Source: Alphaproteobacteria bacterium
GTDB lineage: Bacteria > Pseudomonadota > Alphaproteobacteria > ATCC43930 > CGMCC-115725
DNA: 49,590 nucleotides
Direction of reading: 5' to 3'
Assembly (NCBI GenBank): GCA_019237135.1
Contig: JAFAHQ010000367.1
Coordinates: forward strand, 1-49,590
A program made the position numbers and the translations under genes. Positions 1 through 21,858 of the stretch are shown piece by piece. A model generated the notes under the pieces. That model was not told the DNA's origin, did not search any database, and saw nothing but the letters and a program-made list of their open reading frames with translations. Each line of letters starts with the position of its first letter. The first letter of the stretch is position 1.

Positions 1-1884
1 CCAGGGTCCGAGATCCTCGACCGTAGCGCTCGCGGTGGAGATCAGGTTGGCTGAGTTCGGGATATAGCTGCCGGGATGGCCGGGCTCGGTATCGGCGGTG
101 CCGGGGTCGCCATCGGCGTAGCGCGCGTGCGTAGCCGCGAAATCGCCGTCGAGACGGAGCCAGGGAAGCGGCTTGTAGGAAGCACTCAGTTCGATGCCCT
201 TGCGTTGGCTCGGCCTGCCCGGCGTGGTCTCGGCCTCGTCGCCGTCAAACGTCGCCTCGCTGGCGAGATTGAGCACGAAGAGCGCGCCCTCGAGCTTGAG
301 GTTCGGCAATGGCTCCGATCGCACTCCAACTTCGTACCCGGTCGCTTTGGTCAGTAGCGGCGTCTTGACCTGCGGCACGATGGTGGGGTTGCCCTGCTGG
401 AAGTTGATCTCGGTCTGCAATGCATTGACGGTGGTCAGTGCGCCGCGCAAATCGTTGCTGTGAAAGCCCTGACCGACACTCAGGTAGTATTCGGTCTGGT
501 TCCACGGACCGAAGATCAGATTGCCCTTTGGGCTGGTGATGGCCTGGACGATCGTGCCGGAATTGGCCTGGAGCGTGCTTTCGTCTGAGCCGTAATAGAG
601 ATCCTCGCGCAAACCGGTGACCGTGCGAAACTTGTCCAGCCATTGGATTCGATTTTCGATAAAGAGGCCGCCGCTCGATTCGATCACATGGTCGTCACGC
701 ACCGTGAACCGCACCACCCGGCCGGTGGTCTCTGCCAAATCGATGTGAATGTCGTCTGTACGGGTCTGAAAGCCGACAGTGTTCTGCGCGTCGTAACCAA
801 AGACGTTGCCGGGGATCATATAGCTGACATTTCCGCCATAGATCTTGCGCCGGTCTTGCTGCACAAACTGGTCGCCGATGGGAGGGGGGAAAGTCACGAA
901 ACCGTCGAAATTGTTAAACAGTTGCAGTTGGTAACCGATCAGATAGGCATTTGCTTTGAGCTGACCGGTGTCGGTCGTTGCAGTATATTTGGTGGAAAAG
1001 CTGTAGCGCTCCGAGCTGCCGCCGTCGGTCGGGTCGAGCGGGCAGTAGAGGCAGATCAGTCCCTCAGTGACGGCACGCTGTGGGATTTGATTTGTCGCAT
1101 GGAAGGCATCGTTCATGTACATGCCGGTGAACGAGAACCCGTTATCCGCATTCCCCTGGCTATAATTGGCGATGAGGTTTCCTTTGTTGTAATTGTCCGG
1201 GATCTCCCACGGCCCGTCGGCGTGAACGTATTCGGCCGCAACCAGAAGGTTGCCGTCTGCCACCGGACGCGAGGCGGCGCCGAGCCCGCGGGCGTAACCG
1301 AACATTCCGGCGCTAAGCAAGGCGAGGTCGTGCGGCAGGGTGTCGACATAATTGATCTGGACGGCTCCAGCCGTGTCGAAGTCGCCGAGACTGGGGAAAT
1401 AGGGCCCCTTGCTGTATTGCAAGGTGCTGATCAGCTCGGGGATCATGAAATTGAGATCGGCATAGCCTTGGCCATGCGCGTGGGTACGCATGTTGACCGG
1501 CATGTCGTCGAGCGAGATGTCGATATCGGTGCCGTGATCGAGGTTGAAGCCGCGCAGGAAATACTGGTTGGCCTTGCCCTCGCCGCTGTGCTGCGTGACG
1601 ATCAGCCCCGGCACGACCTCGAGCGTTTCGCCCACCCGATAGACGGGCTGCTGCTGGATCTGCTCACCGGTGACAACCCCTTGCGAGGCGGTGTCCGGCG
1701 CGAAGAACGCTCTATCCGCCTGCGCAGACACGCTCATTTCGGGCAATGTGATTGTGGCGCCGCCGGGGGAGTTATCCCCGGCGGCAGTGCCGGGATCTTC
1801 GGCTAGTGCCGCGCTTGCAAATCCGAGCGAGACGATGAGCCCGGCGGTAAAGCCGCGCCAGGATTTGGTTCTGGTGCGCTGCAT
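1..1884 (-). CDS. TonB-dependent outer-membrane receptor (N-terminus and plug in window; C-terminus runs off the left edge)
   Basis: Manual translation from the ATG at 1884-1882 gives MQRTRTKSWRGFTAGLIVSLGFASAALA (signal peptide), then TLPEMSVSA (TonB-box-like), then GEGKANQYFLRGFNLDHGTDI and PVNMRTHAHGQGYADLNFMIPE (plug signature). No ORF terminating inside the window is listed for this frame, so I infer it is open to base 1 (spot-checked at both ends only). The + ORF 643..1806 is its antisense shadow. Confidence 0.85.
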   Translation of the reverse strand, partial: MQRTRTKSWRGFTAGLIVSLGFASAALAEDPGTAAGDNSPGGATITLPEMSVSAQADRAFFAPDTASQGVVTGEQIQQQPVYRVGETLEVVPGLIVTQHSGEGKANQYFLRGFNLDHGTDIDISLDDMPVNMRTHAHGQGYADLNFMIPELISTLQYSKGPYFPSLGDFDTAGAVQINYVDTLPHDLALLSAGMFGYARGLGAASRPVADGNLLVAAEYVHADGPWEIPDNYNKGNLIANYSQGNADNGFSFTGMYMNDAFHATNQIPQRAVTEGLICLYCPLDPTDGGSSERYSFSTKYTATTDTGQLKANAYLIGYQLQLFNNFDGFVTFPPPIGDQFVQQDRRKIYGGNVSYMIPGNVFGYDAQNTVGFQTRTDDIHIDLAETTGRVVRFTVRDDHVIESSGGLFIENRIQWLDKFRTVTGLREDLYYGSDESTLQANSGTIVQAITSPKGNLIFGPWNQTEYYLSVGQGFHSNDLRGALTTVNALQTEINFQQGNPTIVPQVKTPLLTKATGYEVGVRSEPLPNLKLEGALFVLNLASEATFDGDEAETTPGRPSQRKGIELSASYKPLPWLRLDGDFAATHARYADGDPGTADTEPGHPGSYIPNSANLISTASATVEDLGPW

Positions 1885-2054
1885 GCCACGGTCGTATTAG
1901 ACGTAGAGGAGTAGCGCGAGATCGCGCAGGCAATCAACTCCTGCCAGGCGGCTACGGGATCGGTTGATCGGCGAGATAGCGTTGGACGACACGCGGCGGC
2001 ATTCGAGCGCATTGCTGCGGATCCCCAGCCCGAATATTCAGCCGGCTTGCCCGC

Positions 2055-3176
2055 TCATAGGAATATGCTGACATTGAGGCTGCGCTCGATCAGCCATACC
2101 GAAGCGACCGTCACGATGCTCAATGAGCCGGCCCCGAGCACGAGGCGCGGATAGAGCCACGAGCGGCGCGACAGATAAGCGACGGGCAAGAACGTCGCGA
2201 CGATCGCCAGTTGCCCAGCCTCGACACCCAGATTGAAGCTGACCAGCGATACCGCCAGCGCCGGCTTCGGCAGCGCCAGATCCGTTAAGACATTGGCAAA
2301 GCCCAATCCGTGCACCAAACCGAAGACGAAAGCCACGATCCATAGTCGCTTCTCGATCAGCGGGTAAAGGTTGTTCAAGGCGGCGACGACCACCGAAGCG
2401 GCGATTGTCGACTCGATGAGCCGCGACGGCAGGGTGATGAACCCGAGCACTGCAAGGCTCAGGGTAATCGAATGCGCGATCGTGAACGCGGTGACGATGC
2501 TGATGACGTCGAGCAAAGCCTTGCGGAAGGTCGTTACGGCTTGCCATCTCCCGCCACGGTGCTCGAGCACTGCGGGGAGCAGTAGGGCGCAGAGGAACAG
2601 GATGTGATCGAAGCCGGTCCAGATATGCGAGACCCCGGTCTCGAAAAAGTCGCGAAATTGGCTCCCGAGCCCAACCGACTGCCCTTCCGACTGCCAAGTC
2701 GCGCGGTCGGGGCTGAAAACCGCCGTGTGGGTGCGGCCCTGCTCCTCCAACCGCAGCAAACCGCGGTGCTGCGGGTCGAGATCGAAGAACAGGGTGTATT
2801 TGATGGTCAAAACCCGCGGAGTGGCCGGGCAGTCGACGGAAAACCGCATGACCTCGTAGGCGCCGTCGCTGTGGTTGTCGGCCAAATGTTCGGTGACCCT
2901 CATCGGGCAGCCGACGTCATCAGCGGCGATCGCCAGGCGAGCCAGTGCGTAGGCGGCGATTTCGGTGTGCTTCGCCTTGACCTCTCCCCAGGTGATCTCG
3001 CCGTTACCATCGGTATCGAGCCCAATGGCGTAATCGAGATCGCGCAGCGCGATGTCCCACTGTCCGGTCAGGTGATGGCCCTCCAGCGAAAGCATCAGGT
3101 AGCTGTCGCTCGGCTTGTGGGCATAAGCCGGCGCAACCGATAACGACAGCAGCAAGATCAGGACGAAGCGCCGCAT
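2055..3176 (-). CDS. HupE/UreJ-family (type 2) membrane protein with ~190-aa N-terminal periplasmic domain
   Basis: ORF 2055..3302. Preferred start is the internal ATG at 3176 (MRRFVLILLLSLSVAPAYA signal peptide). The core GVSHIWTGFDHILFLCALLLP plus multiple TM helices are typical of the HupE_UreJ_2 family. Confidence 0.85.
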   Translation of the reverse strand: MRRFVLILLLSLSVAPAYAHKPSDSYLMLSLEGHHLTGQWDIALRDLDYAIGLDTDGNGEITWGEVKAKHTEIAAYALARLAIAADDVGCPMRVTEHLADNHSDGAYEVMRFSVDCPATPRVLTIKYTLFFDLDPQHRGLLRLEEQGRTHTAVFSPDRATWQSEGQSVGLGSQFRDFFETGVSHIWTGFDHILFLCALLLPAVLEHRGGRWQAVTTFRKALLDVISIVTAFTIAHSITLSLAVLGFITLPSRLIESTIAASVVVAALNNLYPLIEKRLWIVAFVFGLVHGLGFANVLTDLALPKPALAVSLVSFNLGVEAGQLAIVATFLPVAYLSRRSWLYPRLVLGAGSLSIVTVASVWLIERSLNVSIFL

Positions 3177-3332
3177 CGATCGGCCTTGCAGCGCAGCCTT
3201 TGTGGATCGGTTCCTGCTGCGACGGCAAATCGCAGCAGGTATTCCGCTCTCTGATGACATTGGTTCTGCATCAGCGCCTAAGAGGGCAGTCCCGCGCGCC
3301 ACCCTGCGCGGGCTGCACTTCCGGCCTCCGGG

Positions 3333-4925
3333 TCACGGTGCCGGCGGCGGCGGCACTGGCGCTACGCAGGGATTACTGCCCTGACCGGCGCTGCACTTGC
3401 CGTCGTACGGTGTGGGGAGGAACGGAAAATTCCGGGCGATGCCGTTCGCCGTAATGTCGACGTCGACCACGCCCGGGGCGCCGGCGAGGAAATTGACGCC
3501 ATCGCCGATGTGGTTGGCGATATAGTTGTTGCCACCGACCACGCGGACCGTAATGTCGGTGACATCATCATTGGGCCGGCGTCCGTTCGGATAGCCCGCC
3601 TTGTCCGTGGTCAGCGCGGCGCCCAGCCGGCTCTGCATTTCGGGTGCGGTAGGCGGCACGCTCAGGTCGAGCCGCAGCAGTTCGGCGCATGGCTGGCCGC
3701 AATTCGAGCCGCTCAGGGCTTGGCCTGGGTATTTGAGCAGAAGGCCGATCAGGTCGGTGCGGTTGTTTGCTGGTGAACCATTGATCGGAACGATGGGCAC
3801 ATGAAACACCAGGTTCAGCTCCGTGGCGACCACCGGATCCTGATAAAACGCCTGGAAATTGGCCTCGTCTTCCGGCTTCGAGGCGTTCCATTCGTCCTTG
3901 AACGGCGTGGTGATGATCAACTCGTTCACCAGCGGGTTTGCCATCCGCGACACCTGGACGAATGGCCCGTCCTCGTCCGCCGGCTCACCGGGTTGGCCCA
4001 GCACTTTCACCTTCTGCCGGGAGGTGTTGGCGTATACCCCGATTACCGGATTGTTGGTGGTCGCGGCCGGTTTACCGTCGCTGGTAACGCGCGTGATCGG
4101 GACCTCGATGGCGATGGTGCTGATGTTGAATCCGCCGAAACGGTTCACGCCGAACGGGTTGACATTGTCACTGTCTTCTCCCGGCCCAGTAAGCGCAGGC
4201 AGGTAGCGGCGCAGGTTCAAGGTGTCGAACACCGCGCCCAGATCGATATAGAAGGTCTCGGCGCGCTGGCCGGCGAACACGCGGATGCCAGTCGCGGCAT
4301 CACTGTAGATGCCTTGTGCGGCCAAGGCAGGATAGTCGGGCATCGTGGCGGGTCCGACGTTCGACGGAACCGCAACCAACGTGCGGCCGCTGAACAATTC
4401 GGTCCGCTGCCCGTGGCGGACCTCGGTCACGGTATAGGTCTGACGCCGGGTCAAGCCTTCCGATCCGGCACCATCGAGCGCGGTGATGCCTTGCAGCGGA
4501 AGTGTAGGCGTAATGTGCGGGTTGCCGAGATACGGCAGCGGTGAAGTCAAATCGCCAGCGGCGACGACCGGCCGGTTCTCGGTCTTGAAGCGGAACTCAT
4601 AGACGACGTCGTCGGCCCTGCCATCCCGGTCGTTGTCGATGTGGACGGCGTACAGCACGTCGTCGCCGAAGTTGAAGTAATTGGGCCCGTCGCTCGGGTC
4701 CTGCCCCGGGTTCACGTTCAATATGAACGTAACCCGCCGATCGGCTGGGGCCCGCGCCAGGTTTGCCTCGTCATAGCTGACAAAAGCGTAAACGTCGGTG
4801 TTGTCGGCACTTGGGTCCAAAGCGATCAGAGGCGCTTCGCGGTGGCTTGCCGCCTCTGCGGGAATATCCCATGCGAGGGCGAATGTCGCCAGCAATGGGA
4901 TGAATAGTTTCAACAAGTGTTTCAT
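3333..4925 (-). CDS. DUF4331 domain-containing secreted protein
   Basis: Signal peptide MKHLLKLFIPLLATFALAWDIPAEA is followed by the family hallmark SHREAPLIALDPSADNTDVYAF. Confidence 0.85.
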   Translation of the reverse strand: MKHLLKLFIPLLATFALAWDIPAEAASHREAPLIALDPSADNTDVYAFVSYDEANLARAPADRRVTFILNVNPGQDPSDGPNYFNFGDDVLYAVHIDNDRDGRADDVVYEFRFKTENRPVVAAGDLTSPLPYLGNPHITPTLPLQGITALDGAGSEGLTRRQTYTVTEVRHGQRTELFSGRTLVAVPSNVGPATMPDYPALAAQGIYSDAATGIRVFAGQRAETFYIDLGAVFDTLNLRRYLPALTGPGEDSDNVNPFGVNRFGGFNISTIAIEVPITRVTSDGKPAATTNNPVIGVYANTSRQKVKVLGQPGEPADEDGPFVQVSRMANPLVNELIITTPFKDEWNASKPEDEANFQAFYQDPVVATELNLVFHVPIVPINGSPANNRTDLIGLLLKYPGQALSGSNCGQPCAELLRLDLSVPPTAPEMQSRLGAALTTDKAGYPNGRRPNDDVTDITVRVVGGNNYIANHIGDGVNFLAGAPGVVDVDITANGIARNFPFLPTPYDGKCSAGQGSNPCVAPVPPPPAP

Positions 4926-4968
4926 GTCTCAGTCTCCTTCTGCAAAATGAGGGTTCTCGACGCGCCAT

Positions 4969-6255
4969 TCAGCCTCGTCGCGCGATGATCCGTTGGAGCT
5001 CGATATCCTCCAACCGGGAATTGCTTAGCCATTCCCGCACGGCGTCGACGGCAGCAGCGTCGCGGGCGGCCAGGGCAGCTTCGAGCAGGATGCGGACATC
5101 CGCCGGCTCCTTCTGCACCTGCCAATTTTCCTGTGCGAGCGTCAGCGCCGCCTGCGGTGCGTTCAGCAGATGCAAGGTGAACCGGCCCTCTTCCCGGAGG
5201 TGCACCCGATCCCCACGAAGGCGGCTGGCCGCGAAGCGGTCGCGCAGCTGCTCCATTTGTGCGGGCAGTTCTTTCGAATGCTGAGCCTGCAACGCCAGCG
5301 CGTAACGGAGCAGCAGGGGGTCTGCGCGGGTCTTGTCCCGAAGCAGGTCGAGGACCTCCGGCGACCGATCGCTGTCCAATAAGAAATCTGCGTAGGCGCC
5401 GAGAACGTAGTAGTCCGCGGCATCGAGAGCGAGCGCTGCGCGAAAATGCGCTTCCGCCTCCTGCGCCATGCCGGCGCGCGATGCCATTTCGGCCAGGCTG
5501 ATCAGCAGCCAGCTTTGAACGCTCGGCTTAGCGCGAGGGTACCTAGCGAGCGCTAGACTAAGTTGCTGATAGCTCTCGCGCAGCTGACCGGTCACTCCGT
5601 TCACATTCGCCAGGCAGGCGGCCCACACCAGTTCTTCGGTCAGCTCTTGCAGCGCGCGGCATTCTTCCCTCGCCTCGTCATAGGCGCCCTGTACCTGCAG
5701 CACCGTCGCGCGGATTAGCCGAGCCTGGAGATTGCGTGGATTGGTGTTCAGCACCGTCGCTAAATCCGCCAAAGCGGCATCGAACTGGTGCACGCGCTGA
5801 CGCAAAGTGGCGCGCAAGACCAGCACTTCCTGAGGTGCTTGCTCAAAGTCCCACCACGGGGCCAGCGCAGCTTGAGCATAGCCAGCGTAACGTGGATCAC
5901 CCGTGACGCGGCCGACCTCGAGGTAGCCCTGTGCGACAAGAAGCGCCAGCGGCAAGTTATCCGGGCTGCGGGTCAGTTGATTATTCAGTGCGCGCAGCCT
6001 GCTCAGGACAGGGTCGTTCGGCGCGAACGGCAAGCGCTCGAGGACCTGGCTGTCGGATTCAGGGACGAACGGCGCAGCAACCGCCCGTCCTGACGTGACG
6101 GCGATGACGATGACGCAGATCAGCGAGGCGATGCCACGCCATCTCTGGGAAAGCATATCGAGGAGATCAAGTGCTGATTCTGACGAGGATCCGAACGGTC
6201 CGCGCGATCGCTGGGTTAGCGAAGCCCGAGTGAAGGCGGCATTGGAACGCTTCAT
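4969..6255 (-). CDS. Tetratricopeptide-repeat protein, N-terminally anchored or secreted
   Basis: ORF 4969..6303. Start is uncertain (ATG at 6255 gives MKRSNAAF; a later Met precedes the hydrophobic IASLICVIVIAVTSG). Helical repeat-rich sequence with TPR-like A/L/Y periodicity. Confidence 0.7.
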   Translation of the reverse strand: MKRSNAAFTRASLTQRSRGPFGSSSESALDLLDMLSQRWRGIASLICVIVIAVTSGRAVAAPFVPESDSQVLERLPFAPNDPVLSRLRALNNQLTRSPDNLPLALLVAQGYLEVGRVTGDPRYAGYAQAALAPWWDFEQAPQEVLVLRATLRQRVHQFDAALADLATVLNTNPRNLQARLIRATVLQVQGAYDEAREECRALQELTEELVWAACLANVNGVTGQLRESYQQLSLALARYPRAKPSVQSWLLISLAEMASRAGMAQEAEAHFRAALALDAADYYVLGAYADFLLDSDRSPEVLDLLRDKTRADPLLLRYALALQAQHSKELPAQMEQLRDRFAASRLRGDRVHLREEGRFTLHLLNAPQAALTLAQENWQVQKEPADVRILLEAALAARDAAAVDAVREWLSNSRLEDIELQRIIARRG

Positions 6256-6401
6256 CGATAGTCTCCCCCGTTTGCAGCGGCCCGGGCCGCCGCTCCTCCC
6301 CATTACGGCTGAGATGTCCCGGCGGATGCCGCCGATTAAAATCTTTTCGGTGGCTGCCGTTCACAAAGCCGTGATGTCGAGAGCCGAGCCAGCATGTCCG
6401 G

Positions 6402-6977
6402 TCACGAAGTCGGTAAAGCGCGAAGGACGTCGATTACGCTGGCGCAGCCAGCGCGTTCCAATGCAACAGAATAAGGCCGCCGGAAAGCGGAGCGGATTAT
6501 CTCATGGTGACTGCCGGCGTGAGCAATCGTGTAATCGCCAGGCCGATAATCCTGGCCATCGACGTTCACGACGCCCTCGAGCACGAAACACTCCTCCGAC
6601 TCCGGATGATCGTGCTCGGGATAGGCACTGCCGGGCTCCATCCGCATCAGGCCCGTGCGCTCGCCGGTCACCGGATCGACGTGGAGCATCTTTAACTTGG
6701 TCCCCGGTGCGACTTCGAGCCACACGCCTTCCGATTGCCGGCGAGAGATGGATGGCGCCCCTCCGCCGATGCGTTGCTGGACGGCGGCCCAGACGGATGC
6801 GGGGGGCGTCACCGGAGCCACCCGATCTGCAAGCGGCGTCAGGCGGCGGAACCAGGCATCGACGGAGCGGCGAAAGTCGGGCTCGTCACGCATGCGGCGC
6901 GTGACCGCTGCCCGTTCGTCGGCTTCGAGCGCTCCGAGCACAAATTCGCCGGCCAATTCCTCGGACGCGTCAGCCAC
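6402..6977 (-). CDS. Soluble anti-sigma factor: RskA-like sigma-binding N-terminus fused to a ChrR-type cupin domain
   Basis: GTG start overlaps the sigma gene stop by 8 nt. The N-terminus ELAGEFVLGALEADERAAV...WFRRLTPL is paralogous to the RskA-like protein at 8591..9295. The C-terminus carries cupin motifs PGSAYPEHDHPESEECFVLEG and GDYTIAHAGSHHE. No TM segment and no HxxxCxxC zinc motif. Confidence 0.7.
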   Translation of the reverse strand: MADASEELAGEFVLGALEADERAAVTRRMRDEPDFRRSVDAWFRRLTPLADRVAPVTPPASVWAAVQQRIGGGAPSISRRQSEGVWLEVAPGTKLKMLHVDPVTGERTGLMRMEPGSAYPEHDHPESEECFVLEGVVNVDGQDYRPGDYTIAHAGSHHEIIRSAFRRPYSVALERAGCASVIDVLRALPTS

Positions 6978-7515
6978 TCACGTCACCCGGATCCAGGCAT
7001 TCCTTCAGCTTAGCGAGCCCTCTGCGGATTGTCGATTTCATCGTACCGAGCGGGACACCAAAGCTTTTCGCCAGTTCGGCGTGCGACAGCCCGAAGTAAA
7101 AGGCCATCAGAATCGCCTTGGACTGCATGGCATCGAGACGCTGCAAGCACCGTTCGATATCGACCCCGACAATGTCGTGAGGGGGAACAAGCCCCTCGAT
7201 CTCCTCGAGGTCGGGAGCAGTTGGACGCCGGCTGGCGTTGGACCTCAACACATCAATGCAGATATGACGGACAATTCCCGACATCCAATGGATCGGCTGC
7301 CCCTTTTCGGGATTATATTGGCCGGACACGGCCCAAATCCGCACATAGGCTTCCTGCAGCGCTTCGCCTGCAGCATCGGCATCCCGCAACATCCGGCTGG
7401 CGATCGCCAAGAGCTTGCCGTTGGTCAGACGGTAGAGCTCTGCAAAGGCGATCTGATCTCCCAACGCGGTAGCGCGAAGCAGCTCCGACGGGAGGTCGGC
7501 AAGCTCTATCGACAT
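6970..7515 (-). CDS. ECF (sigma-70 family) RNA polymerase sigma factor
   Basis: ORF 6970..7587. Preferred ATG is at 7515 (MSIELADL). Region 2 (EALQEAYVRIW) and region 4 (FGVPLGTMKSTIRRGLAKLKECL) signatures are present. Confidence 0.85.
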   Translation of the reverse strand: MSIELADLPSELLRATALGDQIAFAELYRLTNGKLLAIASRMLRDADAAGEALQEAYVRIWAVSGQYNPEKGQPIHWMSGIVRHICIDVLRSNASRRPTAPDLEEIEGLVPPHDIVGVDIERCLQRLDAMQSKAILMAFYFGLSHAELAKSFGVPLGTMKSTIRRGLAKLKECLDPGDVSG

Positions 7516-7665
7516 CGCTCCATCCAGTGGTCCGCGCGCCGGCGCCGAATGGTCGATAAATGAGCCTGGATGAGCGGCCCTGGTCAAGGTCCCGCTCGCC
7601 GCTCGTCCGACAGCAAATCTGATCCTTGCCTATATCGTGTTCTTCTGAAAGGTACTCCACGAATG

Positions 7666-7880
7666 CCCGTCGACGCCCGCCAACCGCCGTCTCGCCGCGG
7701 TCCTCGCGAACGCTCGGTCGGAGCCGGGTCAACGCGACGCGGTGAGCGTTGCAATCTCCCCCCAGGAGCAGGTCCGTGGTGCGCTGGCGGCAAGCGCTCG
7801 GCGCTCTCGGTGGTTCAGGCGTCGCTGACGAGCGTCACCAGATACCCGAGATCGCGGGCGTCACGCACCCGCTCTCGACG
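7666..7880. repeat. Copy A of a duplicated segment (intergenic DNA plus isochorismatase 3' end), roughly 85-90% identical by eye to 10017..10263 with a ~32 bp internal deletion
   Basis: Hand alignment: cccgtcgacgcccgccaaccgccgtctcgcc...ggtgcgctggcggcaa (7666-7793) against 10017-10144, then gcgctcggcgct...cgctctcgacg against 10177-10263. Confidence 0.8.
7729..7880 (-). pseudogene. Decayed 3' fragment of an isochorismatase-family gene (paralogous to 10080..10724)
   Basis: Homology to the last ~180 nt of the intact gene starts at the equivalent stop codon (tca at 7729-7731). The ~32-nt deletion breaks the frame and the 5' two-thirds of the gene are absent. Confidence 0.65.
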
Positions 7881-7899
7881 GGCGAAACCCGAGGTTTGC

Positions 7900-8451
7900 C
7901 TAGGGCATCAGAACCTTGTCGATGACCATGATGACCCCGTTACTCTGGTATACATCGGGGACCGTGACCCGGGCGGTGTTGCCCTTTTGATCGGTGATCG
8001 TGAGGGTGTTGCCGCTTTCCGCCACGATCAGCAGCTCGCTTTCCGCGGTCTTCAGCGAAACTCTGCCGCCGGGCGTCGTCTTGATCGCGTGATCGAGCGA
8101 CATTGCATCATAGCGGCCGGGGACCACGTGATAGGTCAGGATCTGGGTGAGCTGGGCCTTGTTCTCGGGCTTCAGCAGCGTGTCGACGGTGCCCGCCGGC
8201 AATGCCGCAAAGGCTTCGTTGGTCGGCGCGAAAACCGTGAACGGGCCGGGACCCTCCAGCGTCGGCACGAGACCCGCAGCTTTGACCGCCGCCACCAGGG
8301 TGGTGTGGTCCTTCGAGTTGACGGCGTTCTGGATGATGTTCTTCGTGTCATACATCGGCGCGCCCCCGACCATCGGGTCCATCGCCGCCATGGCGCCGGC
8401 GCCGAGTGTCAGGGCGACCACGGCCGTCGCGCTCACCAGCCTGATATTCAT
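7900..8451 (-). CDS. Fasciclin (FAS1) domain secreted protein
   Basis: ORF 7900..8508. Preferred ATG is at 8451 (MNIRLVSATAVVALTLGAGAMA signal). The FAS1 signatures TLVAAVKAAGL, GPFTVFAPTNEAF, ILTYHVV and SNGVIMVIDKVL are present. Confidence 0.9.
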   Translation of the reverse strand: MNIRLVSATAVVALTLGAGAMAAMDPMVGGAPMYDTKNIIQNAVNSKDHTTLVAAVKAAGLVPTLEGPGPFTVFAPTNEAFAALPAGTVDTLLKPENKAQLTQILTYHVVPGRYDAMSLDHAIKTTPGGRVSLKTAESELLIVAESGNTLTITDQKGNTARVTVPDVYQSNGVIMVIDKVLMP

Positions 8452-8590
8452 GCCACGTTCCTCGCTGATATCTGCTCTGCGACTTCGGCAACGGGATGCT
8501 GCCGACACGTCGTCTCTCGCAATACGCAGCCGAGGCGGATCTGGATGCGGCCGTAGGTAAATTCTGGCGGGGCGCCGCCCTTGCGCCCGA

Positions 8591-9295
8591 TTACGGCAGT
8601 CTCAGCAGGACCTTGCCGCGAGACAGAACCGGGCCGGTCGGAAGCCCCGTCGGAGATCCGCCTTGCGGCTCGAGGCTGACCGCCAGCAGATCGCCCGGCG
8701 GCGGCAGCTGCGCGGCGCGGATTATTGCGGCGTTACCTGCTTCCGGCCGCAACAAACCGAGCGGGCGGGGCGCCCCACCGGCGATGCTCCACAGCTCGAA
8801 GGAGTGACGAGTGTCCTCGGCTTGCGGCCGGATCGCGGAGACTGAGACTTCGCCCGTTTGCGGTCCGGCGATCGCAATCCAATTCGGGTCGCCGCTCTGA
8901 TCGGCGAGCACCGCGACCACGGCCGGGATGGGTGGCCCCATGCGGGCCGGAAACGCCGCGATGTAGATGATCAGGGCCGCCGCGGCCGTGCAGGCGGCGA
9001 TCGACAGACCACGCCAGAATGCGAGCGAGCCAAACCAGCGATGCTCGAAGGCAGGTGGAGCAGCGTCGGCGGCGATCCGCGCCTCGACCGCACGCCAGAC
9101 ACGAGCCGGCGGCTCCTCGGCCGGGGTTGCCGTGTCGAGCGGCGTTAGCCGGTCGGCCCAAGCGCCGACCAACCGCGCCAGCGTGGGGTCATCGGCCATC
9201 AGCCGCTCGAAGCGCCGCCGCGACCGGCTCGGCATCGTGCCGAGGACATATTCGGCGGCGAGTTGGTCGCGTAATTCTGGGTCGTCGTACCTCAT
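8591..9295 (-). CDS. Anti-sigma-K factor RskA-like membrane protein
   Basis: ORF 8591..9370. Preferred ATG is at 9295 (MRYDDPELRDQLAAEYVLG), forming an ATGA overlap with the upstream sigma stop. One TM helix (LSIAACTAAAALIIYIAAF) and an extracytoplasmic RskA-type C-terminus (FELWSI...LAVSLEPQGGSP). Confidence 0.8.
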   Translation of the reverse strand: MRYDDPELRDQLAAEYVLGTMPSRSRRRFERLMADDPTLARLVGAWADRLTPLDTATPAEEPPARVWRAVEARIAADAAPPAFEHRWFGSLAFWRGLSIAACTAAAALIIYIAAFPARMGPPIPAVVAVLADQSGDPNWIAIAGPQTGEVSVSAIRPQAEDTRHSFELWSIAGGAPRPLGLLRPEAGNAAIIRAAQLPPPGDLLAVSLEPQGGSPTGLPTGPVLSRGKVLLRLP

Positions 9296-9915
9296 GGGTC
9301 CAGACACCGCTTCAGACGTTCGAGTCCGCGGCGGACCCAGCTCTTGACCGTTCCGAGCGGCACGGCGCAATCGGCTGAGATCTCCTCGCGCGTGAAACCG
9401 TAGAGATATGCGAGCAAGATAGCCCTGCGCGGCTGCTCGTCGAGCTCTGCAAGACAGCGCTGCAACGCGGCCATCTCGGCACCGCGATCGGTACTACCGC
9501 TGGCCGCGAAACTCAGCAGCATCTCATCGGAGGCGCTGTGGCTATTCGGCCGACTGGCACGTCGACGAACGTGATCGATCGCGCAATGGCGCACGATCGT
9601 GGTGAGCCACCCCGTGGCCGAGCCTCTTGCCGCATCATAATCGCCAGCCCGCTGCCATATGGCGACGAAGCTCTCCTGCAAAACCTCTTCCGCCTCCTCT
9701 CTCTGGCCGACGATTCGTATCGCGACGCCAAATAGTTTCGCTGCGGTTCGCGCGTAGAGCGCCGCGAAAGCAGCCTTGTCTCCCCGCGATGTTCCGCGGA
9801 TGAGTTGCTGAAGCTGCAAAGGCGAATCCGAGCCTGACCCTTCTTCGAGACGTTTCACGATGTTCACGGAGCGGGTTGAAGGTGTCCCTATGCGCCGCAC
9901 GGTCGAGCAATGCAA
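9292..9915 (-). CDS. ECF sigma factor (SigK-like, paralog of 6970..7515)
   Basis: Region 2 (EEVLQESFVAIWQRAGDYD) and region 4 (AVPLGTVKSWVRRGLERLKRCLDP) signatures. Exact start is uncertain. Confidence 0.85.
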   Translation of the reverse strand: MHCSTVRRIGTPSTRSVNIVKRLEEGSGSDSPLQLQQLIRGTSRGDKAAFAALYARTAAKLFGVAIRIVGQREEAEEVLQESFVAIWQRAGDYDAARGSATGWLTTIVRHCAIDHVRRRASRPNSHSASDEMLLSFAASGSTDRGAEMAALQRCLAELDEQPRRAILLAYLYGFTREEISADCAVPLGTVKSWVRRGLERLKRCLDP

Positions 9916-10016
9916 CCGGCGAAGGTCAGTCGCTTATTCCCAGCGTAGCCAACCCTGCTTGGTTCGCCGGCACACTTAATGCCGCCACGTCGTCGTGGCC
10001 GGGCTTGTCCATCGCG

Positions 10017-10263
10017 CCCGTCGATGCCCGTCAACCGCCGTCTCGCCCCAATCCTCGCGAACGATCGATCGGAGCCAGGTCAACGCGACGCGGAGAGCGT
10101 GGCAATCTCCGCGAGGAGCAGGTCTGTGGTGCGCTGGCGGCAATAGCCGCGGATGCCGATCAGCGACTGCTCGTGGCGCTCGGCGCTGGTGGTGGTGCAG
10201 GCGTCGGTGACGAGGGTGACAAGGTAGCCGAGGTCACAGGCGTCGCGCACTGCGCTCTCGACG
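10017..10263. repeat. Copy B (parental) of the duplicated segment; covers the intergenic DNA and the 3' end of the intact isochorismatase gene
   Basis: See the alignment under 7666..7880. Confidence 0.8.
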
Positions 10264-10724
10264 CACTGGTCGGTCATCATTCCGGCGACGATCAGCGAGC
10301 GCACCCCGAGATTGCGCAAGACGAAATCGATATTGGTCGATATGAAGACGCTGCTCGACGTCTTACGAAAGACCATTTCGTCCTCTGACGGTGCGATTTC
10401 AGCGAGGATCTGCGCGTCCCACGAGCCGCGCGGCACGTCGATCCCCGAGATCTTGTAGTCGAGGCTGCGGTCGCGGCCGTCCAAGGTCATGTTCTCGACT
10501 GCCGCGTAGACGACCTCGATACGCGCGCGGCGGCAGGCCGACTGCAGAAGCTGCAGATTAGGCAGCACGGCTTCGCGTAGGCTGCCGAACAGATAACGGC
10601 GCTGCTGCGCGTCGAGCTTGTGAGAGCCGGCACCGTCGGGATGCGCGCAGTAATTCTGGACATCGACGATCAGCAATGCCGCATGGATTGGGTCAACCGG
10701 TACTTCACGGCTCAGTGTGGTCAT
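10080..10724 (-). CDS. Isochorismatase-family cysteine hydrolase
   Basis: The motifs ALLIVDVQNYC, FRKTSSSVF and LIVAGMMTDQCVESAVRDA carry the catalytic D/K/C triad context. 4-nt overlap with the upstream gene. Confidence 0.85.
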   Translation of the reverse strand: MTTLSREVPVDPIHAALLIVDVQNYCAHPDGAGSHKLDAQQRRYLFGSLREAVLPNLQLLQSACRRARIEVVYAAVENMTLDGRDRSLDYKISGIDVPRGSWDAQILAEIAPSEDEMVFRKTSSSVFISTNIDFVLRNLGVRSLIVAGMMTDQCVESAVRDACDLGYLVTLVTDACTTTSAERHEQSLIGIRGYCRQRTTDLLLAEIATLSASR

Positions 10725-11503
10725 CGGCGCAAAAACTCCGCGTATGCGGCCGGCAACAGGCGCGCCAGACGCTCGGCCCAGTCTCGCTGACCCGACGGTT
10801 CGGCGATCTGGTCCTGGCGGATCTCGATCTCGACATGTGGCAAGCCGCGCCGCTCGCCATGCACCGGGACCGTGTAGTCGGTCAGGTCGCTCACCGCATA
10901 AGGCGCGTTGTCGCCGACCACGAGACCGTCCTCGGCGCTCAGTAATTCAAAGAGAGGACGGGCGAGCCGGGTGTCCCGATTGTAGAGCACTGCGACATGC
11001 CAGGGACGAGCCACGCCTTTGAAGACCGGCGTGAAGCTGTGCAATGCCACCAAAACCGAGGCGCGACCCGCTGCAGCACGCCTGTCGAGCGCGGCGGCGA
11101 TGGTGCAGTGATAAGGACAAAATATAGCGTCGATTCGCGCGGTGCGTGCCACTTGGGTCAGGCCCAGATTGCCGGGGATTTCAGTCATCTCGCTAATTTC
11201 CGGGATCGAGCTCGGCACCTCGGGGTCGCGATTGCAGTCGATCACCAGACGCGAATACGTCTGTAGGACCACGGCTGCGTCCAACAGACGCGACAGCTGC
11301 CGCCCGACGGCGCCAATCCCGATGTCCCAGGCGATGTGGCGCTGGGTCTCGTGCTCCGGCAATCCGAGCCTGTCGAGCCGGCGGGGAATGGCTCGGCCGG
11401 CATGGTCGCAGGCCAGAAAAAAAGCCGACCGCCCGGCCTCGTTGTCGAAGCTCACCGGGTCGGGTTCGTCGGCGTCTAGCAATGTCTCGGCTATCGCGCT
11501 CAA
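10721..11503 (-). CDS. N-formylglutamate amidohydrolase (FGase) family protein
   Basis: The motifs FLACDHAGRAIP, YSRLVIDCNRD and LVALHSFTP are typical of PF05013-type proteins. 4-nt overlaps on both sides. Confidence 0.8.
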   Translation of the reverse strand: MSAIAETLLDADEPDPVSFDNEAGRSAFFLACDHAGRAIPRRLDRLGLPEHETQRHIAWDIGIGAVGRQLSRLLDAAVVLQTYSRLVIDCNRDPEVPSSIPEISEMTEIPGNLGLTQVARTARIDAIFCPYHCTIAAALDRRAAAGRASVLVALHSFTPVFKGVARPWHVAVLYNRDTRLARPLFELLSAEDGLVVGDNAPYAVSDLTDYTVPVHGERRGLPHVEIEIRQDQIAEPSGQRDWAERLARLLPAAYAEFLRR

Positions 11504-12774
11504 TAGACCTCGGCGTAGCGGGCGCAGAGCTCGGCGGGCGAAAGCTCCGCGACCTTCTCTGCCTCGACGCGCTTGAAGCGCAGATAGGCGTCGAAATGAG
11601 TCGGACCGAACCAGCCGGCGACCGTCTCACTGGCCGCGAGCCGGTCGAGCGCGTCCGGAAGCGATCGCGGAAGCGACGGTGGGGCGCCACTTGTGGCCGG
11701 CAGCGGCAACGCCCGGCGAATCCCGTCAGCCCCCGCAAAAATCACGGCGCCCAATGCAAGATACGGGCTCGCCGCAGCATCGGTGGGGCGGAATTCGACA
11801 TGGAATTGGCGCGCCACCTCGTTCGCCGTCGCGGCAGCGAAGACCGGGCAGATCCGAAGGCTGGCGCCGCGGTCCTGGCGAACCAGATCGATCAGGGTCG
11901 GCGCCCATGCATTGGGCACCAGACGCAGGTAAGAGACCGGTGAGGGTGCGGTAATCGAGCAGGTCGCCGGCATGTGGTGCAAGACGCCTGCGAAGAAATG
12001 CTGCGCCGGCTTGCTGAGATCCATCGGCTCGCCGGGAGAATGGGTCGCGGGCCGTCCCGCGGCATCGACCAAACTCATGTGAATGTGAACGCCATTGCCG
12101 ACGAGATCGGGATCGGGCTTCGGTGAAAAAATCACTCGGTGCCCCAGCCGATGCGCGACGGCACGCGCCATCTCGCGGGTGATCACCGCGTGATCGGCCG
12201 CGGTCAAGGCCGGCTCCGGCATCACGGTCACCTCGAACTGGCGCGGCCCGTACTCGGCAAGAAAGGTATCAGGAACCACCCCGGCCGCCCGCAACGCGGC
12301 GACAAAGCTCTCGCCGAAACAGCCCTGGCGACGGAAGGCGCCGAGCGCGTAGGCGTCGCCCGGACGGTCGGAGGTGCCGGTGTAAAGGAACTCCTGCTCG
12401 AACGCTGCAATCACGCGAAGGTGTGCCACCTCTTCGAGTTGCCAGATCGCGCGACGCAGGAAATCGCGCGGACAGCATTCCCAGGCACTGCCGTCGGTAT
12501 TGCAGATGTCCCCGAGAAAGAAGTGCTCGATCGCCGAGCCGTCGGCAAAATCGACCCGCACTTCGGCGGCGGGATCAGGCACGATCATGAAATCTCCGGC
12601 GGTCCCGAACGGCGTGTCCCAGATCGGCCCGAACGGCGACATCATCAAATTGCTGCCGGTCCACCCCACCCCCTTCTTCAGGCGCAGCGGCAGCTCGCGC
12701 GCCGGGAACCCCTTGCCTCGCGCAAGGCCGGAGATGTCGCAGGTCACTACGAAAATCAGCTCTTCGCGTATCAT
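11500..12774 (-). CDS. Glutamine-synthetase-family (gamma-glutamyl ligase-like) protein
   Basis: GS catalytic-domain features are present: AAFEQEF, FLAEYGPRQFEV, GNGVHIHMSL and SYLRLVPNAWAP. Confidence 0.8.
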   Translation of the reverse strand: MIREELIFVVTCDISGLARGKGFPARELPLRLKKGVGWTGSNLMMSPFGPIWDTPFGTAGDFMIVPDPAAEVRVDFADGSAIEHFFLGDICNTDGSAWECCPRDFLRRAIWQLEEVAHLRVIAAFEQEFLYTGTSDRPGDAYALGAFRRQGCFGESFVAALRAAGVVPDTFLAEYGPRQFEVTVMPEPALTAADHAVITREMARAVAHRLGHRVIFSPKPDPDLVGNGVHIHMSLVDAAGRPATHSPGEPMDLSKPAQHFFAGVLHHMPATCSITAPSPVSYLRLVPNAWAPTLIDLVRQDRGASLRICPVFAAATANEVARQFHVEFRPTDAAASPYLALGAVIFAGADGIRRALPLPATSGAPPSLPRSLPDALDRLAASETVAGWFGPTHFDAYLRFKRVEAEKVAELSPAELCARYAEVY

Positions 12775-19917: not shown

Positions 19918-21858
19918 CTAAAAGCCGAACATGTGGTCGAGGCTGAACGATCCGTTGTGGCCGACCAGCCCGTGATAGCCAAAGAGCCGGCAGGTCGCGT
20001 CGCGAATCATCACATGAGCGCCGGCTCCTGCTCGGGTTCGCGCCGCCGCGTCAAAAACATCTCGATAGTACCAGAGCCGCGAACCCGAGCAGGGGATCGC
20101 CAAACTTGTCCGAGCTACCTCGCGTCCGGTGCCATCGTGGAGAGTGATCTCAGTGGCGCTCGCTGCCCGCCACGGGCGTGATGCGGGATAGATCAGCTGG
20201 CACAATGTGTCGTAGGCGGGCTCGCCGAGCCTTAGAAATAGGCGGGTCGACAATCCCGGGGGACGCCCGCTGTAGGATTGCGGCTCGTCGCGATAAGTCA
20301 AAATCGTGTTGAAGACATGGGCCCCAAAGCTGGTTTCAGCAGCATGACCGCTGCGCCGGTGGCGATAGCGGAACAGCGCGTGAAGCCATCCGTCCGCGGT
20401 GCCCCCTGCGGAAAAGTCGTAAATCAACTCGACATGGCCATAGCCTTCGTGCAGAGCCTCGATCCCGGCAACCTCGTCCAGGTCGAGAGCCGCTTCGTGC
20501 GCCCGCGGCACTCGTCCGAAAGAATGACGCAGAACTTCGTTTCCCTCCGGATCATAGACTAGCGCTGCAATCGGCAGCTCGGCTTGACCGACGGCCATCG
20601 GTGTCGGCAGTACTAAGCTCTGCCATTTATTCAGCGGCATGACCGGGGCGGGCAACAGATAACCCTTGCCAAGGGTGACCGCGAGCTTCGGAAGATCGAG
20701 GTCGGCGGCTAAGTCGGCGCGTTCTACATTGACATGCGCGATCCGCCGACGGCTGCGATCGAGAATTTCATAGCGAGGCCGCACCATATTCTTCCCCGCA
20801 CGCAACTCGACCTGCCTCGGCCAGGTCAGACCCGGCAGGATTTTGCTGATGTCGACCGCGCGGGTTGCAAATGGCGCAATCGGCTCGGAGATCGACGCCA
20901 GGTGCTCCTCGCCCATCGGGTTGAGACGAATGTCGTAAGGGGGAATCTGGATGGGGTGACTGTTCTGAAGCCAGAGCACGACGCGCTCGCCCGGGCCCGG
21001 CGCCGGAAGGCCGGCATAGCGGTCTGCGGGCCACGCGTTCGCGTCATGTGTGGAGGAGAGCGAGCAATCGGTACTGGCAAGATCGCCGTTGGTGATCTCT
21101 GAGCTGGCATCGCCAAATATGTCGAGGGCGTATTTGACGACGTCGTGCCCGGCCGCTCCGACGATGTGGAGAAACAGCTGACCGCAGAATTCGGTGAGGC
21201 CGAATCGGTCGCGGATCTCGCGGCTGTCGAGGACGATCGTGCTCCCGGCCGATCCACAGTTTTCACACCACTCGGCGAGGATTTGACCATCGCCGGCGAA
21301 CAGCGTCACCCAGCAAGTAACAGTTCCCGCGCCGTAACTCGACCAGTAGTTTGCGGTCACGAGCCGGGTATGCAATCCATCTGCCTCACGGAAGAAAGCA
21401 AAATTGGTGGCGAAATTGAGTGGGTCGAGATAAGCGCTTGGCTTGGTCAGGCGCTCGTGAGGAATTCGCATTGCGTCGAGGCTGAACGCCTGTGCGCCGT
21501 TGGGCAAATAGGGTTGGAGCTGCGCGATTGTGCGCTCGGCATCGAACGCAGCGACGAACACCGACCGGGCGCACGAGCCCGCGAGTTCAGTCACCGGCTT
21601 CGTTGCATGGCCTAAGACGGTGGCTCCGATCCGAGGCACTTGTTGGACGTAGGCGCCGGCAATTTCGACCCTGTCGAGGCAGAAGATCTCGTTGAAGGCC
21701 TCGGCGGCACCGCTCGGATCGTAGACAGCAACCGGAGCGTTGCGCGTCAGCATGGCGACCAGAGTCTTCCCCGGTTGCGCGGCGCTCGGATGGGTCAGGG
21801 CCTTGTAGAGTGTATTCCCCCCGCGGGCGTTGTCGAAGGTCTCGATGCGCAGCGGCAT
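19918..21858 (-). CDS. Hypothetical 646-aa cytoplasmic protein with an N-terminal Rossmann-like segment and repeated ~100-aa modules
   Basis: Long ORF with composition and codon use that look native. No signal peptide or TM segment. No family recognised. Confidence 0.75.
   Translation of the reverse strand: MPLRIETFDNARGGNTLYKALTHPSAAQPGKTLVAMLTRNAPVAVYDPSGAAEAFNEIFCLDRVEIAGAYVQQVPRIGATVLGHATKPVTELAGSCARSVFVAAFDAERTIAQLQPYLPNGAQAFSLDAMRIPHERLTKPSAYLDPLNFATNFAFFREADGLHTRLVTANYWSSYGAGTVTCWVTLFAGDGQILAEWCENCGSAGSTIVLDSREIRDRFGLTEFCGQLFLHIVGAAGHDVVKYALDIFGDASSEITNGDLASTDCSLSSTHDANAWPADRYAGLPAPGPGERVVLWLQNSHPIQIPPYDIRLNPMGEEHLASISEPIAPFATRAVDISKILPGLTWPRQVELRAGKNMVRPRYEILDRSRRRIAHVNVERADLAADLDLPKLAVTLGKGYLLPAPVMPLNKWQSLVLPTPMAVGQAELPIAALVYDPEGNEVLRHSFGRVPRAHEAALDLDEVAGIEALHEGYGHVELIYDFSAGGTADGWLHALFRYRHRRSGHAAETSFGAHVFNTILTYRDEPQSYSGRPPGLSTRLFLRLGEPAYDTLCQLIYPASRPWRAASATEITLHDGTGREVARTSLAIPCSGSRLWYYRDVFDAAARTRAGAGAHVMIRDATCRLFGYHGLVGHNGSFSLDHMFGF

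Follow-up and report, generated by a model that had tools for sequence, protein, structure and literature searches.

The closest described relatives of the transport genes considered here are the Ang-1/Ang-2 "anglerase"-HupE/UreJ-2 permeases (Franco Cairo et al., Nat Commun 2025; PMC12537917), whose "anglerase" domains are proposed to fish metal ions into the permease. RbAng-1a binds Cu2+ with a dissociation constant (Kd) of 74 nM and Ni2+ with a Kd of 220 nM via a mono-histidine brace at His1 and is destabilized by Zn2+ and Co2+ (PMC12537917). The closest relatives of the regulatory genes are the extracytoplasmic function (ECF) sigma factors SigK (ECF19) and RpoP, RpoT, and LitS (ECF18), together with the RpoE-ChrR pair (ECF11) of Rhodobacter sphaeroides, in which the anti-sigma factor is soluble and ends in a cupin domain. 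Here we analyze a window of 49,590 nucleotides (nt), the whole stretch of DNA under study, in which the minus strand of positions 1 to 7587 carries a cluster that joins genes of these kinds to a secreted protein of family DUF4331. We consider it probable that the cluster is an ECF-sigma-controlled operon that imports a transition metal after capturing it in the cell envelope, the metal most likely being Cu(II) or Ni(II). DUF4331, its tetratricopeptide repeat (TPR) partners, a TonB receptor, and ECF regulation are not discussed in the anglerase study, and DUF4331 appears once in its source data, with a count of 2 (PMC12537917).

Six same-strand open reading frames (ORFs) lie at the expected coordinates within 1-7587, and ORF calls and Pfam bore out the genes, domains, and 8-nt overlap between sigma and anti-sigma genes of the original prediction, least firmly for the TPR protein. 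The features of the cluster, with the supporting matches, are as follows.

6970-7515, minus strand: ECF sigma factor of the SigK-like clade (ECF18/19); Sigma70_r2 1.2e-9, r4_2 1.1e-13
6402-6977, minus strand: soluble anti-sigma factor with a C-terminal ChrR-type cupin; Cupin_7 2.1e-20
6303-6328, minus strand: ECF18-type promoter, GCATCC-N16-CGTAAT, about 40 nt upstream of the ATG of the TPR gene (6255)
4969-6255, minus strand: helical-repeat (TPR-like) protein, membrane anchored or secreted; TPR models and an N-terminal hydrophobic helix
3333-4925, minus strand: secreted DUF4331 protein; PF14224 2e-107
2055-3176, minus strand: inner-membrane HupE_UreJ_2 permease; PF13795 7.7e-49
1-1884, minus strand, frame open to the edge: TonB-dependent outer-membrane receptor; Plug 7.7e-14, barrel 7.3e-14

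Clusters close to identical to this one occur on two further contigs (L081/L082), so the six-gene arrangement is not a matter of chance. The window is a complete contig from an uncultured bacterium, and its nearest relatives are soil metagenome-assembled genomes labeled Alphaproteobacteria or Acetobacteraceae.

The permease is the component with the clearest biochemical precedent. Its HupE_UreJ_2 domain (PF13795) occupies residues 219 to 380 of a long ORF, and its signal peptide ends in AYA and is followed by HKPSDSY, which gives a predicted mature N terminus at His20. Neither A19 nor H20 varies among 10 diverse and 51 closer homologues, and the same pattern, AxA followed by H, recurs in most neighboring permeases of other DUF4331 loci that bear an N-terminal domain. 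An AlphaFold2 (AF2) model, with a predicted local distance difference test (pLDDT) score of 80, consists of a beta-sandwich at residues 24 to 165 (pLDDT about 85 to 95) and then a helical channel. The best Foldseek match of the N-terminal domain is 9GCE, the Cu-bound Ang-1 domain from the anglerase study (E value, 6e-6; probability, 1.00; template modeling [TM] score, 0.60 on the target). Shared with the Ang permeases are the signal peptide followed by His1, the periplasmic beta-sandwich, and the C-terminal PF13795 channel with conserved histidines; H184-x6-H191, H235, and H289 are invariant in homologues, and the DUF4331-adjacent permeases, whether NicO or HupE_UreJ_2, share nearly invariant or invariant H184, H191, and H235 (window numbering). 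Unlike Ang-1, the N-terminal domain in the window carries extra invariant His, Asp, and Cys residues, and unlike the Ang permeases as published, the permease shares its operon with an ECF sigma pair and a TonB receptor as well as with DUF4331 and a TPR-like protein. The modeled fold makes this most likely a divergent "anglerase"-type permease, with predicted Cu2+/Ni2+ binding at His1. The original prediction had assigned the permease to a family tied to Ni/Co uptake; the family assignment stands, and because permeases of this kind bind Cu2+ better than Ni2+, the metal would be Cu or Ni rather than specifically Ni/Co.

A different choice of metal, zinc or cobalt, is suggested by the next Foldseek matches of the N-terminal domain, the Zn proteins ZrgA and PA4063, which are Zur regulated, and by HupE and NiCoT members that are known to carry Co in some organisms (Zhang et al. 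2009). We regard it as very unlikely, since the X-X-His and His1 amine-imidazole sites described here prefer Cu(II)/Ni(II), RbAng-1a is destabilized by both Zn2+ and Co2+, and a B12-box regular expression gave no match upstream of any DUF4331 operon examined, nor was a cobalamin riboswitch found upstream.

The DUF4331 protein matches PF14224 with 360 bits (cutoff, 27) over profile positions 2 to 421 of 421. The family is large, with 8,655 clusters at 50% identity at an E value of ≤1e-3 and 5,666 at ≤1e-10, and a full-text literature search on DUF4331, PF14224, PF13795, and HupE_UreJ_2 found no paper, in agreement with the earlier statement that DUF4331 and its TPR partner have no assigned function. 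The arrangement that binds Cu(II) and Ni(II) in amino-terminal Cu(II)- and Ni(II)-binding (ATCUN) proteins, a free N terminus with histidine at position 3, is established chemistry. In the window, the signal peptide of the DUF4331 protein ends in AEA and is followed by ASHREAP, giving a predicted mature N terminus of Ala-Ser-His. Of the 87 genomic copies, 55 carry [A/S]-S-H after a signal peptide, in the fuller form [A/S]-S-H-[R/K]-E-A-P, and 28 start directly with M-S-S-H. The residue preceding the motif in the 55 signal-bearing copies is A (49 copies), G (5), or F (1), and A, V, S, G, I, T, or L stands two positions before it; this is the -1/-3 pattern of signal peptidase. A wider set of 150 representatives at 50% identity behaves likewise: 119 signal-bearing sequences, in all of which A, G, or S precedes [A/S]-S-H at the predicted cleavage site, and 15 starting with Met (M-X-X-H) fit X-X-His (134/150), and the remaining 16 are mostly fragments or close variants such as M-T-S-H or G followed by A-S-H. 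X-S-His would therefore be exposed in both forms, by signal peptidase in the signal-bearing one and by methionine aminopeptidase in the signal-less one.

The mature N terminus of DUF4331 is thus probably X-X-His, an ATCUN-type Cu(II)/Ni(II) site, as far as conserved residues and predicted processing can tell. H28 is the sole invariant ligand of the His/Cys/Met (soft-metal) type in the family; most of the remaining invariant positions hold Asp, Asn, or Arg and form clusters resembling Ca sites. The AF2 model has a pLDDT of 71.7 and a predicted TM score of 0.79, and its N-terminal segment is modeled with low pLDDT. A predicted mature X-X-His with a residue other than Pro at position 2 is shared with the ATCUN proteins serum albumin and the histatins; unlike in those proteins, the site in DUF4331 sits on a secreted bacterial protein of about 500 residues with a novel fold. 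N-terminal-His copper proteins that invite comparison are CopC, YcnI, and the lytic polysaccharide monooxygenases. Few ATCUN examples from the bacterial envelope are documented in the literature retrieved with the terms ATCUN, periplasmic, nickel, and signal peptide.

The product of 4969-6255 clearly consists of helical repeats behind an N-terminal membrane helix, and its H172 and W394 are almost invariant.

To survey gene neighborhoods, genomes were scanned with one genome per species; at least 597 DUF4331 loci were found, and the best 80 were analyzed. Neighboring ORFs were chosen by GC content at third codon positions and grouped by transitive clustering; single-query tblastn and phmmer searches with the window proteins under-detected divergent TPR and permease partners. 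A TPR partner stands on the same strand beside DUF4331 in 35/81 loci, and a permease is nearby in 33/81; all 33 permeases belong to NicO (22/33) or HupE_UreJ_2 (12/33), some matching more than one family. Judged from gene order and family membership, the conserved core is DUF4331, a TPR protein, and a HupE/UreJ_2 or NicO permease. In type A operons the order is DUF4331-TPR-permease or, as in the window, TPR-DUF4331-permease; these occur in Proteobacteria, Actinomycetota, Chloroflexota, Acidobacteriota, and one cyanobacterium, and the core arrangement is therefore kept across phyla. A Pfam survey of 139 flanking ORFs, which covered the first half of the flanking set, gave no further recurrent neighbor families beyond the core.

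The original prediction had also counted the TonB receptor and the cupin anti-sigma factor as parts of the system; the survey instead identifies both as lineage-specific additions. The receptor is restricted to close relatives (L081/L082 and L086) and, independently, an acidobacterial locus (L034), and the related locus L084 has no receptor after the permease. A SigK-like ECF sigma gene adjoins DUF4331 in 24/81 loci, usually with a membrane RskA-type anti-sigma factor, and most DUF4331 loci have either such an anti-sigma factor or no neighboring regulator. Where the cupin anti-sigma factor does occur, its linkage is tight: a sigma gene lies directly upstream in 22/22 metagenome loci, and TPR/DUF4331 genes lie downstream in 14/16 loci with downstream sequence; in L101 the downstream genes are of type B (Tat protein/DUF4331). 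Co-occurrence of ECF18 and ECF214 with DUF4331 had already been listed, uninterpreted, in the supplement of the ECF re-classification, which places DUF4331 at +2 of ECF18s13 and in ECF214s1 and fasciclin in several ECF18 subgroups.

Type B operons have four genes, which encode a protein of about 90 residues with a twin-arginine translocation (Tat) signal, a signal-less DUF4331 protein (M-S-S-H), a protein of about 110 residues, and a NicO permease (E value, 5e-102 in L016). The RR motif is present in 13/14 of the small proteins, L073 having RLSFL only. The gene for the Tat-signal protein precedes that for signal-less DUF4331, often with an overlapping stop codon, in L016 (9707-11404), L024, L027, L028, L036, L040, L053, L055, L057, L064, L071, and L073-L075. 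This gene order suggests that signal-less DUF4331 may be co-exported as a Tat "hitchhiker" with a small escort subunit. The protein of about 110 residues between DUF4331 and NicO matches no Pfam family (examples: L040, 13381-13830; L052, 11466-11876; L074, 11374-11838; L075, 11314-11679; L036, 10733-11053), and many of these proteins carry long His-rich inserts such as HGHGHGHGHGHGHGEHGHG, recalling Ni/Zn metallochaperones.

Two minor observations concern individual loci. In two Vicinamibacterales loci only (L031, 12881-13408; L039, 12890-13411), a glyoxalase/vicinal oxygen chelate gene follows DUF4331-TPR and replaces the permease; glyoxalase I is Ni dependent in many bacteria. In L086 (8468-13100), DUF4331, the permease, and the receptor are broken into short ORFs, and the cluster is either decaying or poorly assembled.

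Regulation by a SigK-like sigma factor is indicated by the promoter. The intergenic gaps of the cluster contain no terminator-like sites on the coding strand, and the cluster forms one operon, with a single ECF18-type promoter at 6303-6328. This promoter agrees with the published ECF18 consensus, -35 xGCATCC and -10 xxCGTATx (PMC13492112); the ECF re-classification supplement gives the ECF18 target promoter as TGCATCTT-Xn-CGTA. The only other match to GCATCC-N16-CGTAAT in the window lies at 8522-8547, before a fasciclin gene; both positions agree with TGCATC(C/T)...CGTA, as expected of ECF18/ECF19 targets. The cluster promoter is kept in L081-L088, L090, L096, L097, L104, and L016; the sequence block around it is almost identical in L081/L082 and recognizable in L016, where it stands before a different first gene.

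Conservation of the promoter type extends to loci of other lineages. The strict motif occurs 110 to 250 nt 5' of DUF4331 in L001, L003-L007, L012, and L016, most of them without a sigma gene nearby, and 5' of the TPR gene in twelve more loci; overall, the motif lies upstream of TPR or DUF4331 across L001, L003-L007, L012, L016, and L081-L104. A relaxed motif was found in 30/80 loci across phyla, versus about 5 expected at the background rate. Since the promoter type of the sigma factor lies directly 5' of the structural genes in several genomes, and 5' of TPR or DUF4331 in many loci, the downstream genes are not excluded from its regulon. An autoregulatory promoter before the sigma gene was considered and rejected: the only candidate, CATCC...CATTC, is degenerate and not conserved in L082, and no autoregulation is therefore claimed for this cluster; L007 has a good ECF18-type motif upstream of its own sigma gene. 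As a further observation, a GC-rich inverted repeat, CCCGCGC...GCGCGGG, lies just 3' of the DUF4331 stop codon (3180-3330) and is partly kept in L082; it could form an mRNA-stabilizing or attenuating hairpin that sets the ratio of carrier to permease.

The sigma factor consists of sigma2 and sigma4 domains only. Its best solved relative is Mycobacterium tuberculosis SigK (4NQW; 9e-20), and it matches the NCBIfam SigK subfamily at 6e-34, under the curated cutoff. Both sigma4 cysteines (C133/C183 of SigK) align, in the contexts ierC and lkeC, and are also present in a second sigma factor of the window (9292-9915); most DUF4331-adjacent sigma factors in other phyla are without the Cys pair. The relatedness to SigK, the Cys pair, the GCATCC...CGTA promoter, and a nearby fasciclin gene are features of SigK-RskA (ECF19) and of ECF18 systems (RpoP, RpoT, LitS). 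Unlike in these systems, the target is a putative metal-uptake operon, and unlike in the ECF18 norm, where 96.6% of members have an RskA with one transmembrane helix, the anti-sigma factor is a soluble cupin protein. An RskA-like anti-sigma factor with one transmembrane helix is absent at +1 of the first sigma gene and present in the second pair (8591-9915). As a side observation, the sigma orthologue of L016 (6626-8610; 67% identical) is cut to 135 residues by a DDE transposase (PF13701, 8e-24), and the cupin anti-sigma factor, promoter, and downstream type B DUF4331-NicO operon of that locus are intact.

The anti-sigma factor has no transmembrane helix, as originally predicted: its maximal 19-residue Kyte-Doolittle mean is 1.06, versus 2.24 for the neighboring RskA. 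Its N terminus matches an RskA-like NCBIfam anti-sigma model, and it has no RskA_C domain. The first 129 residues contain no Cys, so a zinc-binding HxxxCxxC domain is absent. The cupin was correctly described as having intact ligands; the protein has H122, H124, E128, and H158, none of which varies among homologues. The ChrR cupin ligands are residues 141, 143, 147, and 177. The soluble form, the C-terminal cupin, and the identical H-x-H-x3-E...H spacing liken the protein to ChrR, to whose structures it has weak matches, and in contrast to RpoE-ChrR, the HxxxCxxC zinc domain is missing, the sigma factor is not of ECF11, and the promoter is not GTGATC-CGTA. Scores against curated ChrR-family models are far under their cutoffs (TIGR02451, 24.7 versus 124.5 bits; NF051881, 31.2 versus 300 bits). 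A soluble ChrR-like anti-sigma factor is listed for ECF19s19 only in the ECF re-classification supplement.

The original prediction had proposed cytoplasmic metal sensing by the cupin. Since ChrR cupins answer singlet oxygen and peroxide, metal is only one of several possible inputs of this anti-sigma factor. Operons of this type are governed by a periplasm-facing RskA in certain lineages and by a cytoplasmic cupin elsewhere, which would fit a signal that is present inside and outside the inner membrane alike, metal availability for example. In another account, the operon would belong to a SigK/ChrR-type regulon for redox or photo-oxidative stress in the envelope; DUF4331, the TPR protein, and fasciclin would act on envelope components, and metal import would not be the main task of the permease-like protein. 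In favor of this account are the SigK-like, redox-sensitive Cys pair of the sigma factor, the cupin ligand spacing of the singlet-oxygen sensor ChrR, the light response of the ECF18 member LitS, and recurring fasciclin genes, which also belong to the SigK regulon of M. tuberculosis (mpt70/83). A match to DsbD_2, albeit weak, in 10 of the permease neighbors speaks for it too. The permeases, however, keep His residues and not the Cys pair required for DsbD/CcdA electron transfer, the N-terminal domain of the window permease resembles Cu- and Zn-binding domains, type B operons combine His-rich partners with bona fide NicO proteins, and an invariant N-terminal X-S-His is hard to account for without a metal. 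We therefore judge a redox regulon distinctly unlikely.

The receptor is represented in the stretch by its first 628 residues; the full-length orthologue has 721 residues and is encoded by the last gene of the operon in L081/L082. Plug and barrel are its only domains, with about 35 residues between signal peptide and plug, and Pfam detected no STN domain, consistent with the prediction that an N-terminal signaling extension is lacking. An ECF sigma factor and a TonB-dependent receptor in a metal-uptake locus recall FecI-FecR-FecA; here, unlike there, the sigma factor is of another clade and the receptor gene stands at the end of the operon under its control. Signaling of the FecIRA type was ruled out, as the original prediction had it, by a receptor without STN and an anti-sigma factor that is soluble and not FecR. 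Comparison with solved relatives for the substrate gave only the plug of BtuB (9e-7) and no OprC/NosA- or ZnuD-like match.

Co-transcription of the TonB receptor in the window, L081/L082, and L034 supports the uptake direction. It bears on a further alternative, a metal-stress or buffering response in which the sigma factor is activated by metal excess or oxidative damage, DUF4331 sequesters Cu/Ni in the periplasm, and the metal is exported or redistributed through the permease. In the ECF re-classification supplement, RpoP of C. metallidurans, which belongs to ECF18, is tied to Ni/Co resistance, the NCBIfam ChrR model is described as a cadmium-, peroxide-, and UV-responsive anti-sigma factor, and very tight ATCUN binding would suit sequestration. 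The NicO family, moreover, is known to include exporters such as RcnA. Such a response is nevertheless unlikely, given that the co-transcribed TonB-dependent receptor is an importer, that HupE/UreJ and NiCoT-type NicO proteins with HX5(6)DH are uptake permeases (uptake being also what the anglerase study proposes), and that genes for efflux pumps, P-type ATPases, or multicopper oxidases do not recur among the flanking ORFs scanned with Pfam.

Import thus remains the preferred reading, and metal acquisition by a co-regulated, envelope-spanning cluster is well supported by operon structure, promoter, synteny, and permease fold. Its steps may be as follows. The SigK-like sigma factor would be kept by the soluble anti-sigma factor, which joins a zinc-free anti-sigma domain to a ChrR-type cupin; our guess at the signal is that the cupin loses its metal when supply is limiting. 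Released sigma would transcribe TPR-DUF4331-HupE/UreJ_2-TonB receptor from GCATCC-N16-CGTAAT. The receptor would carry the metal or a metal chelate through the outer membrane, secreted DUF4331 would bind the metal at its flexible N-terminal X-X-His, and the membrane-anchored TPR-like protein would probably keep DUF4331 close to the permease. The metal might then be handed to His1 of the permease beta-sandwich and pass through the His-lined HupE/UreJ_2 channel to the cytoplasm. As to which metal, the NicO/HupE families and the His-rich partner proteins point to Ni/Co; the X-X-His and His1 sites and the biochemistry of Ang-1 point to Cu(II) over Ni(II); the destabilization of Ang-1 speaks against both Zn and Co, and the missing B12 element against Co. 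The combined evidence ranks Ni and Cu about equal, before Zn and Co.

Several points weigh against this reading. First, the link of DUF4331 and the TPR protein to a metal is one that we infer from sequence. DUF4331 has no solved relative by sequence profile against the PDB, and Foldseek with its AF2 model gave no match at an E value of ≤0.001 (TM score about 0.1), which leaves no analogy from which to argue for a binding pocket; six TPR models match the TPR protein with E values of 6e-6 to 4e-3, all under their Pfam gathering thresholds, which makes TPR a weak label. Second, the cleavage site of DUF4331 is a predicted one, and a cut one or two residues later would give Ser-His or His1; cleavage between xS and H, which would yield His1, likewise obeys the -3/-1 rule. 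X-X-His is favored over His1 by the M-S-S-H starts of the signal-less forms and by a variable -1 residue versus an invariant S-S. Third, the N-terminal domain of the permease is 14% identical to Ang-1 in the structural alignment, and a profile search of PDB sequences fails to retrieve 9GCE; the domain is too divergent for detection by sequence, and the permease is therefore treated as a distinct Ang-like subfamily. Fourth, the inputs described for ChrR and for characterized members of ECF18/19 are redox, light, solvents, or dicarboxylates, and the literature does not yet name a signal that activates SigK/RskA. Fifth, a metal-responsive repressor or riboswitch was not found, Rfam over 1-12000 yielding nothing credible (the lone match, Ocean-VII, scores 23 bits versus 53.5), and Ni- or Cu-enzyme genes do not recur near the loci in the Pfam survey of flanking ORFs. 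Finally, relative to L081/L082, the anti-sigma gene of the window has a 1-nt insertion near 6486, GCTTTCCGG against AC-TTCGGG, which frameshifts the last ~20 residues of the cupin protein and changes its last strands (...SGGLILLHWNALAAPA to ...FRRPYSVALERAGCASVIDVLRALPTS). Either a sequencing error or a genuine change that weakens the anti-sigma factor could account for it, and because of this 3' frameshift, regulation in the source organism may be altered.

New here are the pairing of DUF4331 with a TPR protein, an N-terminal X-S-His that is nearly universal, and a conserved connection with SigK-type promoters; the permease is of an already known kind. If the proposed function holds, DUF4331 and its TPR partner, which are abundant in soil bacteria of at least six phyla, would join a route of Cu/Ni uptake, and the 2025 "anglerase" model would gain an upstream soluble carrier and a dedicated regulator. 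Searches for N-terminal-histidine metalloproteins should then widen from His1 to His3. The soluble cupin anti-sigma factor would be a ChrR-like sensor domain on another sigma family, and DUF4331 operons would provide a concrete regulon and a candidate signal for SigK-type sigma factors, including that of M. tuberculosis. A more general proposal is that DUF4331 proteins (>5,600 clusters at 50% identity) are cross-phylum extracytoplasmic Cu/Ni metallochaperones that bind the metal at an obligatory N-terminal X-X-His and feed His1-"anglerase"/NicO permeases together with a TPR partner, with signal-less forms exported by a Tat partner; if DUF4331 operons are conserved targets of SigK-like ECF18/19 factors, whether these pair with a membrane RskA or a soluble cupin anti-sigma factor, the input of the SigK/RskA family would be Cu/Ni availability. 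We advance this wider proposal tentatively and think it, as a whole, somewhat doubtful.

Beyond the cluster, a second regulatory module occupies the adjoining part of the window.

7665-7868, strand not assigned: left copy of a direct repeat of about 205 nt; right copy at 10016-10250
7900-8451, minus strand: secreted fasciclin-domain protein; Fasciclin 4e-34
8522-8547, minus strand: second ECF18-type promoter, CATCC-N16-CGTAT, upstream of the fasciclin gene
8591-9295, minus strand: transmembrane RskA-type anti-sigma factor of the second module; RskA_C 3.6e-18, one transmembrane helix
9292-9915, minus strand: second SigK-like ECF sigma factor, start codon uncertain; about 40% identical to the first

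The repeats at 7665-7868 and 10016-10250 are 81 to 91% identical, each consists of the 3' end of an isochorismatase gene and downstream DNA, and they flank a 2.35-kb module of the second SigK-like sigma, RskA, and fasciclin genes. L081/L082 lack the module at this site, and it resembles an acquisition by insertion or duplication. A fasciclin gene also adjoins in 14/22 loci with a cupin anti-sigma factor and in L021, L074, and L077, and an arrangement of fasciclin gene and promoter like that at 8522-8547 is seen in L021, L092, L093, and L100. Elsewhere in the window, an ORF of 646 residues at 19918-21858 has a good coding signature and matches no Pfam family at an E value of ≤1e-5.

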